Source of the DNA: Calditrichia bacterium
Lineage (GTDB): Bacteria > Calditrichota > Calditrichia > RBG-13-44-9 > J075
Assembly (NCBI GenBank): GCA_050633245.1
Contig: JBOEGD010000018.1
Location: 96,001-160,000, forward strand
Reading direction: 5' to 3'
Length of the DNA: 64,000 nt
How positions within the stretch are numbered: the stretch's first letter is position 1; the number at the start of each line of letters is the position of its first letter. Below, one piece after another: positions 17,756-38,218 of this stretch. The notes beneath the pieces were generated by a model, which saw only the letters and a program-made list of their open reading frames with translations, was not told where the DNA came from and made no database searches. The position numbers and the translations under genes are program-made.

Positions 17756-19225
17756 ATGCCGAACCTTTGTCTCGATAAGCAAACCATCTTCATAACCGAC
17801 GACAGCGGACTGCAGGTCCTGAATCGCAGAGGTTCCTTCCGCCTTCATGGCAAGGGTCTCGATTCTCTGCACACTCAGCTGAAGCCGTATTTAGATGGCT
17901 CGCTTGACGAAGAGACTCTGCTTCAGGCGATCCCACAAAACTCTCGGGAAGTAGTTACCTCTTATCTGGGCAAGATGAAAACTATCGGAGCACTCCAACC
18001 ATCCGGTCAGCATGCTGAAGCCGTAACAGAGATTGATGTTCCGTTAGATACTCTTCTACAGTCACCTGTAAGTTCCATCCATTTTCACTTGAACAACCAG
18101 CGGGCCTCGATTACAACAGATCGTGATTTAACGGCAGTAATTCCAAAAAAATCCGAGTATAAGATCTGTCTGATCTTTGAGCAAAAGCTTGATGAAATCA
18201 TTGCGCGAATCGAGCAGTTGACCCGCCATAATGGAACGGTTGGAATTCTGCTGATCTCGGGAGTTACTGGCAGACGTGAATTGCAGGAAAGCTTCGCAAA
18301 AAAAATGTTTTTACAGCAGGTACTCGATACTTTGCTTAGAAGCTATAGCGATATTTTTCAGAGCGAAACGCGCCTGACGGTGCATGCAGTTGACCTGGAA
18401 TGCAGCACTTTGAGTCAACTTTTACAGCTTGTTGAGAGCCCGGTTGAGCAAATAGAATTTGCCAATGTAAAAGATTGGTTTCAGCTGGTTGAGTTTAGCA
18501 ATGAAACACAGTTGCCACTGGTAAATGCGCGTCTTGCAGCGAAGTATCTCGATTTTCCAAAGCAGGCATGGGGACTTAGTTTTCAGAAGCTGGAGCGTCG
18601 ATTAATCCTCGAGCTGAAGTCGTCCTTGATCAGGCGTTTCTCAGACAATGCTCGCTTTCAGTTTTCTAAACCAGCACATCTTACATCCGCAGAAGAACGA
18701 AAGTCGGGTTTGCCTGCATCACACAATGAGTTCTATGTTGACGATTCCCTGGCTGAGCTGCGGCTTATCTGCCTGGAGTCTTTTCTGATGAAAAAAGTCA
18801 ATAAGACTGAGCTTGCCAGTAAGTCTAAAGAACACGATATGCTTTCGCGTGAATCGCTTGGAAACAGCTGCCAACTTTTAATGCAGATTCTTTCCCTGCG
18901 CCTAAAAGACTTTACTGTTAATCGCTATCAGTCTGAATCCGGACTGTTTGTCTATTGGTTAGAAGATTTTTGCTCCTATTCATTCATAGAAGAAAAGTCT
19001 TGCTTCGAGATGTTGATGTATATCGTCGGGCGGGTTTACTACGACACCCGTTTGGAAGCAACCGATATTCGCAGTGCTGCACTAGACTATGTGGCCGACG
19101 TAATTCTGAACGAACTCGTAGAAAAGCATTCGCTGGAGCTGGAGCAATCTTATCCGGAAGCTCGCTTTATTTATGTTGAGCAGGAGCTTTGGCAAGAAAA
19201 CTTATTCATGGGATATATAGGCTAA
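17756..19225 (+). CDS. Ocin-ThiF-like / TclI-TbtF-type RRE-containing partner of the YcaO cyclodehydratase
   Basis: N-terminal RRE-like winged helix (SFRLHGKGL..LKPYLDGSLDEETLL..VTSYLGKMKTIGAL) and a QLPL motif. Lies directly upstream of YcaO. Confidence 0.7.
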   Translation: MPNLCLDKQTIFITDDSGLQVLNRRGSFRLHGKGLDSLHTQLKPYLDGSLDEETLLQAIPQNSREVVTSYLGKMKTIGALQPSGQHAEAVTEIDVPLDTLLQSPVSSIHFHLNNQRASITTDRDLTAVIPKKSEYKICLIFEQKLDEIIARIEQLTRHNGTVGILLISGVTGRRELQESFAKKMFLQQVLDTLLRSYSDIFQSETRLTVHAVDLECSTLSQLLQLVESPVEQIEFANVKDWFQLVEFSNETQLPLVNARLAAKYLDFPKQAWGLSFQKLERRLILELKSSLIRRFSDNARFQFSKPAHLTSAEERKSGLPASHNEFYVDDSLAELRLICLESFLMKKVNKTELASKSKEHDMLSRESLGNSCQLLMQILSLRLKDFTVNRYQSESGLFVYWLEDFCSYSFIEEKSCFEMLMYIVGRVYYDTRLEATDIRSAALDYVADVILNELVEKHSLELEQSYPEARFIYVEQELWQENLFMGYIG

Positions 19226-19227
19226 AA

Positions 19228-35653: not shown

Positions 35654-36868
35654 ATGATTTCGCTTAGTGATCTCGACTTAGAAGAGCGGTCATCTATTTA
35701 CCGCTTAAAAATTCCTTATCGTACTGCTCATATTAATGCGAATCAGGTGGTTATTTGGGCAGGTCTGTGGAGTGGCCCGGGTTTTGTACTGCGAGATAAA
35801 AAAGAACAAAATCTGATATCTGATTTGTTATCCACATTGGATGGTCTAAGAACGATTGAAGAGGTTGTGTTGGCTCAGAACAAGGAGGTTCAGTCTAAGG
35901 CATTACAATTTCTTATTCTTCTTATCCAGCGCTCAATTTTGGAAAAGATACCGACCAAACCGGCAAATATGGACATATCTCATGCGGAGTTCGAGCAATT
36001 CGGAAATTCATTTCGTTCCTTGTCTGTCCTAACCAGTCAGTCTACAGAGTCCGTCTCTGGTCGATTGAGAAATAGCAATGTACTTTTCATTGGCGCAGAC
36101 TCTCTTGCAATGCGTGCAGCATTACAGTTGGGAAATAGCGGTATTGCGAGTCTTTCGATTCTTGACTACCATGAGATAAACAAATCCGATCTATCAAGCT
36201 CCATTCTTTTCGAAAAGAGTATGATGGGAAAAAACCGCGCAGATGTATTAGCCCAAGTGCTTAATGAACATCATCTGGGAACTAAAGCAGTGTCTTCAAG
36301 TCGCACAGAATGGTTTTCTCATAAGGATATTGAACAGGCAATGAAGAATTGCACACTCGCCATTGTAGCATCTAACAGCCCGGATTTGCTTCTCTTACAG
36401 AGAGTAAATGATGTGGCTTTAAAGCTAAAAAAGCCCTGGCTTGCTGCTTCTTTAGATGGTTTGGAAGGAGTTGTTGGCCCAGCATTTTTTCCTTACGAAT
36501 CCTGCTGTTTTACATGTTATCAGATGCGATTGGAAAGTAACATGAATAATTTTGCGGACTACGTTCAGTATCGATCCGCCTCCGAGCGACAGCCTCTGGC
36601 AAGCCGCAATACAAATACGCTCTCACTAGCCGGGACAATCGACATTCTCGCAGGGCATGTCTCTTTGGAAGTCCTTCGCTGGTTATCTATTGGCACGAGC
36701 CGTCTGGCGGGAAGAATACTTCGCCAGGATTTTCGATCCGGGGAAATTGAAACGAACGATGTTTTGAAGCTACCTCGCTGCCCCTCCTGTAGCTTAGTTG
36801 CTGAGGAGCGTCCAAATGAACAAATTTATCATACCTATGAACATCTTATTAAGGGGCTGAATATATAG
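35654..36868 (+). CDS. TOMM C-protein (RRE + ThiF/E1-like cyclodehydratase scaffold, SagC-like)
   Basis: RBS GGAGA. LSTLDGLRTIEE (RRE), VLFIGA, VGPAFFPYESCCFTCY, LKLPRCPSC. Confidence 0.88.
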   Translation: MISLSDLDLEERSSIYRLKIPYRTAHINANQVVIWAGLWSGPGFVLRDKKEQNLISDLLSTLDGLRTIEEVVLAQNKEVQSKALQFLILLIQRSILEKIPTKPANMDISHAEFEQFGNSFRSLSVLTSQSTESVSGRLRNSNVLFIGADSLAMRAALQLGNSGIASLSILDYHEINKSDLSSSILFEKSMMGKNRADVLAQVLNEHHLGTKAVSSSRTEWFSHKDIEQAMKNCTLAIVASNSPDLLLLQRVNDVALKLKKPWLAASLDGLEGVVGPAFFPYESCCFTCYQMRLESNMNNFADYVQYRSASERQPLASRNTNTLSLAGTIDILAGHVSLEVLRWLSIGTSRLAGRILRQDFRSGEIETNDVLKLPRCPSCSLVAEERPNEQIYHTYEHLIKGLNI

Positions 36869-38218
36869 ATGGAAACCGATTTATTGATTAATGAGTTCTT
36901 TCCACTCAAAAATTTATTACCTCCAGAGAATTTACGTCCTTTCATTGGCAGTCGAGCCGGACTGGTTAAACAGATTATACAAAATGGAATTGAACCCGAT
37001 GAGGCGCATCTTTTTCATTTGTCAGTAGTTACATCAAACGCGTCGATTCTTCTACAGCAGCCATCACTCGATATTCGTGCCGCCGGAAGCGGCTCGACCT
37101 ATCGTGAAGCTTTTGGTTGTGCAGTAGGGGAAGTCGTTGAACGATCGGCTCTCGCCTCATATGATAAGAAAGCGATAGTCAGAGGCTCTTATCGCGAGCT
37201 TAGCCAAAGAGGGGTTGAGGTTCTGAGTCCAGAGCAACTGGATTTGTTTTCCAAAGAGCAATATACCAATTCAGATTTCTTGTTCGAGCCATTTACCGAT
37301 ACAGCTGAGCTCGGCTGGACAGAAGGAGTTAACTTGCTTACCGGCAAACCTGTATTGGTTCCCGCCCAAGCCGTTTTGATGAGCTATAAACCGTTCCCCG
37401 GAGAGGCATTCATTACATACTCCACAACATCTGGCTGTGCTTGTGCAACCAGTATGGAATCTGCGATTATTAAGTGTGTTTATGAGCAGGTTGAAAGAGA
37501 CGCCGTTATGTTAACCTGGCTGACGAAAACTAGTCCACCAGGTGTAGATGCTGAGAAAATTGTAAGCGCGGCTCTTTTGAAGAAGCTGAATATGCAGAAC
37601 AATTCAGCCACTGATGTGTATGATCTGCGCTATTTGTCCTATGGAATTGATATCCCGGTATTTCTTGGAATCTTACAAAGGAAGATTGCAGGGAAAAAAC
37701 GATTGCTGATTGGAGCAGCGGCAAATCTCTGTGCTCAGGCTGCTTCCGAAAAAGCATTACTTGAAACGGCCCAATCAATCCCTTTTTTAAAGCTGATTTT
37801 AGCGAGTAATCCCAACCCGGATTTTGCCGGTATTTCGTTCAACGATTTCGAAAAGAATTTACGTTATTATGCAGACGAGAGAAATCAACATCATTTAACG
37901 TTTCTTCAAGAAAATAACGACGTCTTTGCAACGGAGAAACTGCCTGACCACAAAAGCAGAACGACAGAGGAAAACCTGACGTTTATTCTGAAAACTTTGA
38001 AAAGGAATAATCTTACTCCAATCGCCATCGATCACGGTAATGCTGAATATAGAGATCTTGGCTTTCATGTACTTCGCGTCTTTATCCCCGAATTACTACA
38101 GCTTTATACACCAAACGCTCCATTCCTTGGAAATCGAAGAATGCACAGCGTTCTTGGAAAGCTTGGCAAACAAGAAACAGTAAATGATCTCAACCTTCTC
38201 CCACACCCAATGCCCTGA
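36869..38218 (+). CDS. Stand-alone YcaO (SagD-like cyclodehydratase)
   Basis: AVGEVVER, STTSGCA, YEQVERDA, KALLE, C-terminal PHPMP. Confidence 0.9.
   Translation: METDLLINEFFPLKNLLPPENLRPFIGSRAGLVKQIIQNGIEPDEAHLFHLSVVTSNASILLQQPSLDIRAAGSGSTYREAFGCAVGEVVERSALASYDKKAIVRGSYRELSQRGVEVLSPEQLDLFSKEQYTNSDFLFEPFTDTAELGWTEGVNLLTGKPVLVPAQAVLMSYKPFPGEAFITYSTTSGCACATSMESAIIKCVYEQVERDAVMLTWLTKTSPPGVDAEKIVSAALLKKLNMQNNSATDVYDLRYLSYGIDIPVFLGILQRKIAGKKRLLIGAAANLCAQAASEKALLETAQSIPFLKLILASNPNPDFAGISFNDFEKNLRYYADERNQHHLTFLQENNDVFATEKLPDHKSRTTEENLTFILKTLKRNNLTPIAIDHGNAEYRDLGFHVLRVFIPELLQLYTPNAPFLGNRRMHSVLGKLGKQETVNDLNLLPHPMP

Follow-up and report, generated by a model that had tools for sequence, protein, structure and literature searches.

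A thiopeptide-type gene cluster with a putative pyridine synthase of a separate clade in a diderm Calditrichota bacterium

To our knowledge, the thiopeptides that have been characterized, like their [4+2] enzymes, stem from Gram-positive organisms, and a gene cluster at positions 17756–38218 of a 64,000-nucleotide stretch of DNA from a Calditrichia bacterium (the window; contig JBOEGD010000018.1, positions 96,001–160,000) raises the question of whether such machinery is also encoded in a two-membrane cell and, if so, which of the clustered genes belong to it. RpoB of the source genome shares 77–82% identity with proteins from Calditrichia, Calditrichaeota and Calditrichota and 67% with that of Caldithrix abyssi, which places the genome in the Calditrichota, the kind of diderm host that an earlier reading of the sequence alone (the sequence-only reading) had surmised. 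Within the cluster a precursor peptide gene is adjoined by all six thiomuracin-type enzyme types, and we hold it reasonably likely that the locus is a single operon-like cluster of the thiopeptide kind for a peptide that is made on the ribosome and modified after translation (RiPP), operating by the steps proposed below.

The cluster consists of 15 open reading frames (ORFs), all on the + strand, from the start of the first gene at 17756 to the end of the last at 38218:

g01, 17756–19225, + strand: F-protein-like partner of the first YcaO, 489 aa, with an N-terminal leader-binding RiPP recognition element (RRE) domain
g02, 19189–21075, + strand: YcaO cyclodehydratase; longest ORF 628 aa
g03, 21079–21546, + strand: 2Fe-2S small subunit of a xanthine-oxidase-family molybdenum (Mo) enzyme
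g04, 21539–23665, + strand: molybdopterin-binding large subunit with a twin-arginine signal; longest ORF from 21440
g05, 23917–24087, + strand: precursor peptide, 56 aa; predicted leader 1–34 and core 35–56
g06, 24296–25405, + strand: TbtD-like [4+2] cycloaddition enzyme, putative pyridine synthase, 369 aa
g07, 25430–27841, + strand: split-LanB glutamylation subunit, 803 aa
g08, 27845–28702, + strand: split-LanB glutamate-elimination subunit, 285 aa
g09, 28727–30604, + strand: ABC exporter half-transporter, 625 aa, with membrane and ATPase domains and without a peptidase domain
g10, 30631–32814, + strand: TonB-dependent-transporter-like outer-membrane protein, 727 aa; longest ORF from 30577
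g11, 32842–33567, + strand: exported small tetratricopeptide repeat (TPR) protein, 241 aa
g12, 33548–34672, + strand: SagB-type FMN dehydrogenase with a ThcOx-like N-terminal domain; the copy common to related clusters
g13, 34563–35612, + strand: second SagB-type dehydrogenase, 349 aa by longest ORF
g14, 35603–36868, + strand: E1/ThiF-like 'C' protein, 421 aa, with a leader-binding domain of the thiazole/oxazole-modified microcin (TOMM) type
g15, 36869–38218, + strand: second YcaO ('D' protein), 449 aa

With adjusted starts for the precursor, g02, g04 and g10, 12 of the 14 junctions overlap or measure at most 27 nt, so that the description of 15 co-oriented, mostly abutting genes stands; the two long gaps, of 251 and 208 nt, flank the precursor gene. 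For g02 the ATG at 19228, 2 nt past the g01 stop, is a likely start in place of that of the longest ORF. The GC content of the cluster (0.42–0.46) shows no contrast to the rest of the window, and scans for promoters and terminators gave counts not above those of shuffled controls (37 versus 34.7 and 16 versus 19.3, respectively). Gene families were assigned by Pfam and NCBIfam scans of the 15 proteins, and these bear out the two YcaO proteins, two SagB oxidases, split LanB, TbtD-like enzyme, ABC exporter and Mo enzyme named in the sequence-only reading. The same arrangement recurs in independent data: 65 short contig pieces of one public DNA run (X1) match positions 18300–38250, mostly at 90–99% identity, and cover 29 of 30 bins; one 630-base contig among them spans 23417–24039, running from the end of g04 into the beginning of the precursor gene. 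Because this contig bridges the g04–precursor junction, the junction is not an assembly artefact of a single data set, and the match indicates that a related, diverged population carries the same arrangement there.

The putative substrate of the pathway is encoded by g05. A precursor had been predicted at this position as a 65-aa reading from GTG 23890; the precursor is indeed present, and its start is most likely ATG 23917, which is preceded by AGGAG 7 nt upstream and gives 56 aa with the sequence MKNFKLNIDLEELNITEVELFTEEGTKGIPAFAASCSSGPGLHSCVREEKPAPNDE. This peptide aligns with 16 precursors encoded beside g06 homologues in other genomes and metagenomes, and Gly25, Gly28, Pro30, Ala34 and Ser35 are invariant in the alignment. 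The leader family is thus marked by an invariant Ala-Ser junction (Ala34/Ser35), and we take residues 1–34 as the predicted leader and 35–56 as the core. In the core so defined, serines occupy positions 1, 3, 4 and 10, cysteines positions 2 and 11 and a histidine position 9, ahead of a mostly acidic tail; a precursor with a leader and a Ser/Cys-bearing core adjoining the enzymes is one of the marks of a thiopeptide cluster. A regular-expression scan of related loci yielded 29 distinct predicted cores, and each of them has a Ser-Cys pair somewhere from core position 6 onward (10–11 in g05); the core Ser1 that they share is not an independent finding because the scan pattern demanded it. With two Cys, a count shared with 3 of the 29, the g05 core is among the poorest in this residue.

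The enzymes for azole formation and dehydration are all present beside this gene. The product of g01 has no Pfam or NCBIfam match, and a profile of seven g01 homologues matches PDB 8t19 (the PbtF RRE) at E 0.001; the best Foldseek match of its model (pLDDT 61) is 8t19_A (E 1.2e-4, TMt 0.88, rmsd 1.4), followed by TruD, LynD and McbBCD, and Atlas agrees weakly with the assignment. g02 matches PF02624 at E 1.3e-51 and TIGR03604 at 200.5 bits, below the cut-off of 219.25, with TruD, LynD and MusD as its PDB matches, and g12 matches TIGR03605 at 166.5 bits (cut-off 78.4) and PF22767 at E 5.7e-17. A YcaO protein, an RRE-bearing partner and an FMN dehydrogenase, the set expected for azole formation, are therefore encoded together in g02, g01 and g12. 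The split LanB is likewise complete, with a glutamylation subunit, g07 (Lant_dehydr_N, E 6.9e-11; family profile match to PDB 6ec7/6ec8, E 3.2e-11), and an elimination subunit, g08 (Lant_dehydr_C, E 1e-20; TIGR03891, thiopep_ocin, 58.3 bits, above the cut-off of 48.45), which belongs to a clade separate from g06; 6EC8 is given as TbtB in PMC10452190. Together with g06, these five proteins make up the full thiopeptide enzyme set that had been claimed for the cluster from its sequence.

The identity of g06 carries most of the weight in this reading. Its product contains the motif YRSHWEGF, its best NCBIfam family is NF045556 (TbtD_PbtD_pyrid; E 1.4e-47, 162.6 bits, profile positions 2–352 of 354), and its best PDB matches, TbtD 5wa3 (E 3.1e-10) and PbtD, align end to end. 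A word-based protein search with g06 returned the self match only; HMMER over 1.84 billion representatives returned 292 proteins at E ≤ 1e-3, 86 at 1e-10 and 35 at 1e-30, self included, the closest homologue being 33% identical. NF045556 was the best family for all 117 homologues scanned of the 149 non-self homologues listed, most rows shorter than ~300 aa having been left out. A quick IQ-TREE analysis of 65 hand-picked rows (g06, 27 near, 12 intermediate and 20 above-cut-off homologues and five elimination domains, namely g08 and four others; the remaining listed proteins were left out) placed g06 in a 31-row clade with a support of 100 and the 20 canonical, above-cut-off rows in a separate clade with a support of 94, where support is the Shimodaira–Hasegawa-like approximate likelihood ratio (SH-aLRT) only and several rows lie on long branches. 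The elimination domains, g08 included, fall outside both clades. Grouping with ordinary LanB elimination domains was the outcome that the sequence-only reading had named as speaking against its assignment of g06, and the tree sets the enzyme apart from them. His184, Arg310 and Tyr317 of g06 are invariant in 33 of 33 aligned clade members, and Tyr317 aligns with a Tyr of TbtD 5wa3 that would be Y319, assuming a three-residue tag offset of the crystallized chain; mutants of TbtD Y319 are described as stalling before the pyridine forms, with accumulation of a dearomatized intermediate (PMC12018205). Distinct from the elimination domains and with this Tyr conserved, g06 has what is broadly expected of a [4+2] enzyme, and we regard it as a putative pyridine synthase that is homologous to the TbtD/PbtD equivalog, lies outside it and belongs to a sister clade.

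Several observations weigh against a thiopeptide pathway in the strict sense. The score of g06 is half the NF045556 equivalog cut-off of 325 bits, and its 35 nearest scanned relatives (P0002–P0038) score 108.7–180.2 bits, all below that cut-off, whereas many distant ones exceed it. We found no assayed member of the g06 clade in the literature. In four related loci, L010 and L014 (both from Ca. Angelobacter), L044 and L045, the TbtD-like gene comes immediately after the one for LanB glutamylation, and tblastn detected no elimination-subunit homologue anywhere in the locus. With only two Cys in the g05 core the 'thio' chemistry would be minimal, and the residue that precedes the second macrocycle Ser is His, which does not form an azole; pyridine synthases are said in PMC7210931 to read the modification pattern at the site before this Ser. 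A complex prediction for g06 with g05, which scored 0.10 against a mark of 0.32, speaks neither for nor against the pathway.

The clade enzymes might not be pyridine synthases at all, stopping at the dehydropiperidine or catalyzing another reaction of the LanB C-terminal fold, in which case the product would be closed differently or would be a linear azole/dehydroalanine peptide of the goadsporin type. The sub-cut-off scores of g06 and its 35 nearest scanned relatives and the long branch (0.97) that parts their clade from the canonical one are compatible with such a divergence, and stand-alone elimination-like domains elsewhere may perform other chemistry, according to PMC7268733. Set against this are the full-length alignment to TbtD/PbtD with conservation of His184 and Tyr317, the presence of a separate, ordinary elimination subunit, g08, as a result of which g06 is not needed for elimination, and the predicted cores, all of which begin with a Ser at the leader end (required by the pattern) and contain a later Ser-Cys pair. 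We consider a non-pyridine-forming g06 unlikely and retain the putative pyridine synthase.

For the thiopeptide reading the following pathway is proposed; gene order and homologies are as observed, and each chemical step is modeled on characterized relatives, for which azole formation, Glu-tRNA-dependent dehydration, formal [4+2] cycloaddition and loss of the leader as a carboxamide are described in PMC9247985 and PMC7210931. The RRE of g01 would bind the 56-aa precursor through its leader, and g02 with g12 would convert core Cys2 and Cys11 into thiazoles. The split LanB, g07 and g08, would then dehydrate Ser to dehydroalanine in a Glu-tRNA-dependent manner, after which a formal [4+2] reaction of g06 would join the dehydroalanines that arise from Ser1 and Ser10 of the core and expel water and the leader, the latter as a carboxamide. 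The result would be a pyridine-closed macrocycle of core residues 1–10, in which the thiazole at core position 11 leads into a mostly acidic tail of 11 residues; the spacing of Ser1 and Ser10 is presumably that of the 26-membered thiopeptide class. The most likely product, by analogy, is a pyridine-macrocyclic, azole-bearing peptide with an acidic tail, which g09 (ABC_membrane, residues 37–306; ABC_tran, residues 402–551) would export to the periplasm.

How far this gene set is shared was examined in related loci. A locus search with an 11-row g06-family alignment gave 11 loci from species genomes, whose g06 homologues are 28–33% identical and whose hosts are Pyrinomonadaceae, Blastocatellia, Acidobacteriaceae, Ca. 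Angelobacter, Ca. Sulfotelmatobacter, Bryobacteraceae and Longimicrobiaceae, and a metagenome scan added 37 further related loci. The 15 window proteins were compared with these 48 loci by tblastn, and presence was counted in the 20 loci of at least 10 kb, some of which are near-duplicates. g06 is present in all 20, g12 in 17 (34–46% identity), g02, g07 and g05 in 16 each, g01 in 14, g08 in 13 and g09 in 8 (29–42% identity; homologues in several related loci reach 39–43%). The matches to g13 and g15 fall inside the orthologues of g12 and g02, respectively, and g03, g04, g10, g11 and g14 are found in none of the 20. The cluster is no isolated oddity: it belongs to a wider clade in metagenome-assembled genomes of Acidobacteriota, Gemmatimonadota (the named members being Longimicrobiaceae), Bacteroidota and Calditrichota. 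The named members of the canonical clade, by comparison, are all actinomycetes (four of four, Halostreptopolyspora, Egibacteraceae, Actinosynnema and Micromonospora, among 10 clusters examined).

Among 86 species genomes of the phylum, NF045556 matches occur in the source genome and one other (G054) only. The latter match was considered as a [4+2] enzyme and rejected, being the elimination subunit of a split-LanB and LanC locus of the lanthipeptide type. That locus (L004, on contig C93 of G054, a genome of the same family as the source genome) encodes Lant_dehydr_N and Lant_dehydr_C proteins and then a LanC-like cyclase, as in class I lanthipeptide-type loci. Accessory genes differ among the relatives of our cluster and include DsbA-like proteins, a B12-radical SAM enzyme, a carbamoyltransferase and a MacB-type permease. 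Candidate tailoring genes in the acidobacterial loci (L006:3436-5541, L006:1339-3357, L008:1006-1944, L013:4359-5264 and L013:2559-4193) encode B12-binding radical SAM, peroxiredoxin-domain, DsbA-like thioredoxin and carbamoyltransferase proteins.

Downstream of g12 the cluster holds a second azole set, g13–g15. g13 matches TIGR03605 at 134.9 bits (cut-off 78.4), g14 matches ThiF at E 4.2e-20 and TIGR03882 at 58.4 bits, above the cut-off of 36.9, and g15, which begins immediately past the g14 stop, matches YcaO at E 1.7e-59 and TIGR03604 at 256.1 bits, above the cut-off of 219.25; a YcaO match of the g15 type (E ≤ 1e-10) occurs in 3 of the 86 phylum genomes, the source genome included. These genes could represent an independent TOMM or linear azol(in)e-containing peptide system that acts on another precursor and adjoins a thiopeptide-like set ending at g12. 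The leader-binding domain that g14 has for itself, the absence of g14 from the 20 related loci and the grouping of g13–g15 at the 3' end would all fit such a division. Yet g13 overlaps g12 and g14 overlaps g13; neither upstream of g01 nor downstream of g15 did another precursor-like ORF come to light, and tblastn of the whole source genome found no second copy of g05. Thiopeptide clusters with two cyclodehydratases and two dehydrogenases are known, moreover, from the berninamycin type. We therefore think two adjacent RiPP systems quite improbable. In a single thiopeptide-type pathway, g13–g15, found in this cluster only, would probably add azol(in)es beyond those of the shared set, the simplest candidates being core Ser3 and Ser4; that a Ser-rich, Cys-poor core explains the second azole set is speculation.

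A further group of genes concerns the cell envelope. g03 matches Fer2_2 (E 4.6e-28) and Fer2 (E 2.1e-8), and g04 matches MoCoBD_1 (E 6.2e-40), MoCoBD_2 (E 2.6e-35) and, at 19.4 bits, TAT_signal below its cut-off of 22.7. The start of g04 is most likely GTG 21539 rather than 21440, as a Shine-Dalgarno-like stretch precedes this codon and the frame opens straight into a twin-arginine signal with SRRSFIK. The best PDB match of g04 is 8gy3_C, an aldehyde dehydrogenase large subunit (E 2.2e-88, full length), and with a 2Fe-2S subunit, a MoCoBD large subunit and the SRRSFIK motif the g03/g04 pair has the make-up of the periplasmic IorAB/membrane-bound aldehyde dehydrogenase type. The enzyme of 8gy3 we take to consist of three subunits; Pfam found no cytochrome c domain among the 15 cluster proteins, and the pair thus differs from the three-subunit form.

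The transporter-like gene g10 was called a TonB-dependent transporter in the sequence-only reading, a tentative designation that is backed by a fold search with a low-confidence model and by distant homologues, and not by Pfam. Neither PF07715 (Plug) nor the barrel family PF00593 matches g10 even at E 5, and a CarboxypepD_reg-like domain is the only one found. Its homologues P0159–P0162 carry PF00593, its distant homologues are annotated as TonB-dependent receptors, its model (pLDDT 53, low confidence) matches BtuB, Cir and FrpB (~E 5e-14, TMq 0.52–0.56), and BLASTP aligns it with a TonB-dependent transporter elsewhere in the window over the N-terminal and plug region (E 2e-5). A homologue at 65% identity lies on a 9.8-kb metagenome contig. 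The TPR assignment of g11 is similarly divided between a weak Pfam match (TPR_1, E 0.003) and an Atlas score of 0.97 to small TPR proteins; the protein has a hydrophobic, signal-like N-terminal segment.

We propose that the twin-arginine-exported g03/g04 enzyme, g10 and the exported g11 are co-transcribed additions that would act on or carry the product in the envelope; the roles of these genes, and their standing as an adaptation to a two-membrane cell, are inferred only. TonB-dependent transporters are importers, and g10 would therefore point to uptake of the product or its complex, or to protection, and not to secretion. Thiocillin is reported to enter Pseudomonas aeruginosa through the siderophore transporter FoxA (bioRxiv 10.1101/2022.11.18.517105), and TonB-dependent receptors are described as nearly specific for siderophore clusters (PMC7849407). 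The His in the ring and the acidic tail could then be taken to mean that the peptide, a water-soluble pyridine/azole/His macrocycle, is an extracellular metal-binding or signaling molecule and not a ribosome-targeting antibiotic, oxidized in the periplasm by the Mo hydroxylase (for example through hydroxylation of the pyridine, which is electron-poor, or of an azole carbon) and taken up again through g10 with the help of g11. This extension of the pathway is a long shot; if true, it would make the peptide the first metallophore of the thiopeptide type as well as the first RiPP known to be tailored by an enzyme of the xanthine oxidase family.

It may instead be that the core RiPP pathway is real and that g03/g04, g10 and g11 are passengers that came to lie within the operon and neither modify nor transport the peptide. 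The Mo, TonB-dependent-transporter-like, TPR and E1-like genes are absent from all 20 related loci of at least 10 kb; this bears out the earlier description of the accessory set as unusual, and for the same reason the comparison cannot tie these genes to the peptide. Members of the Mo-subunit family are common across the phylum in settings other than RiPP clusters (matches at E ≤ 1e-20 in 28 of 86 genomes), the source genome holds a g04 paralogue with its own 2Fe-2S partner on contig C1, and the solved structure nearest to g04 is that of an aldehyde dehydrogenase rather than of an enzyme that modifies peptides. A g10 paralogue, 25% identical over its full length, is found on contig C11. The gene after it there encodes a protein of 267 aa whose N-terminus is signal-like (462694–465722 for the two), an arrangement that echoes g10–g11; BLASTP shows no similarity between this protein and g11. 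What speaks for membership is position: the genes are interleaved with pathway genes and do not lie at the edge of the cluster, with g03 starting 3 nt past the g02 stop, g04 overlapping g03 and g11 overlapping g12, and the diverged population has the same g04–precursor junction. Moreover, g04 is only 36–39% identical to its best relatives in the phylum and 30–33% to its own paralogue, a divergence too great for a recently copied housekeeping gene. On balance a passenger role for these genes appears somewhat unlikely, while deserving serious consideration, and we keep them provisionally with the thiopeptide-type pathway.

Outside the cluster, the window encodes TonB-dependent receptors as well as flagellar proteins and proteins with sorting domains of the type IX secretion system (T9SS). 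Genes for flagellin, FliD and FlaG occupy 57893–61037 and three proteins carry C-terminal T9SS sorting domains (8156–9259, 42150–43616 and 52638–54869), and the organism therefore appears to possess both flagella and a type IX secretion system. Directly 3' of the cluster, on the same strand, lie genes for a HisKA_3 histidine kinase and a LuxR-type response regulator (38793–40216), possible regulators of the cluster; a second such pair lies at 152–2231. About 27 kb upstream of the cluster, with unrelated genes between, a YcaO gene (PF02624, E 3.7e-74) is followed directly by a TfuA gene (E 8.9e-47) at 84920–87233 of source-genome contig C18, a pair of the thioamidation type.

Taken with its relatives, the cluster represents a separate branch of thiopeptide machinery in diderm phyla, with its own leader family and with cores that are often Cys-poor and carry acidic tails. 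Five clade records with an organism are annotated only as 'lantibiotic dehydratase C-terminal domain' protein, as is P0023, which has no organism; being so annotated and scoring below the cut-off, the [4+2] enzymes of the clade are missed by pipelines that apply equivalog cut-offs. We found no description of the g06 clade in the thiopeptide and pyridine-synthase literature, the 2018 thiopeptide-cluster survey and supplements not being covered, and came upon metagenome surveys with 'thiopeptide' calls only; some clade members may already be catalogued. While the machinery itself is thiopeptide-like, the clade, its leader family, the phylum of the host and the genes for the envelope are new or have not been described. 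The clade offers divergent pyridine-synthase candidates that would accept small, azole-poor cores, and the Calditrichota member, whose operon alone among the related loci includes genes for a periplasmic Mo enzyme and a TonB-dependent-transporter-like protein, poses the question of the fate of the peptide after export in a two-membrane cell.

Among known systems, the thiomuracin (TbtA-G, Thermobispora bispora) and GE2270 (Pbt) clusters come closest, having the same six enzyme types and supplying the best solved relatives of g01 (PbtF), g06 (TbtD/PbtD) and g07 (TbtB). Our cluster differs from both in a g06 that reaches half the equivalog cut-off and falls in another clade, in its leader family, its diderm Calditrichota host and its two-Cys core, and in the additional Mo-enzyme, TonB-dependent-transporter-like, TPR and second azole-set genes. 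The lactazole system (laz, Streptomyces lactacystinaeus) resembles it in other respects: as described in PMC7210931, few azoles are needed, the ring is closed between Ser1 and a later Ser that precedes a Cys, the C-terminal tail may be long, and the similarity of LazC to TbtD and TclM is only weak. Lactazole comes from an actinomycete, however, and laz is compact and without envelope genes. Pyritides (MroA-D, Micromonospora rosaria) share the split LanB and a [4+2] enzyme that together give a pyridine macrocycle and a leader carboxamide; their precursors are described as lacking Cys and their clusters as lacking azole genes (PMC9247985), whereas two core Cys and two YcaO systems are present here, and the cluster is thus not of the pyritide type.

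For the accessory genes the parallels lie outside the thiopeptides. Membrane-bound, periplasm-facing aldehyde dehydrogenases (8gy3) and IorAB-type Mo hydroxylases share with g03/g04 the full-length alignment of the large subunit, the twin-arginine motif and the 2Fe-2S partner; unlike in those systems, none of the 15 genes codes for a cytochrome c or FAD subunit, and g03/g04 are embedded in a RiPP operon. Methanobactin operons, finally, encode a RiPP metallophore together with its own TonB-dependent transporter and periplasmic helpers, and it is in joining a RiPP to an outer-membrane protein, here the TonB-dependent-transporter-like g10, and to periplasmic helpers that they resemble the Calditrichota cluster, while the chemistry and the enzymes are entirely different.

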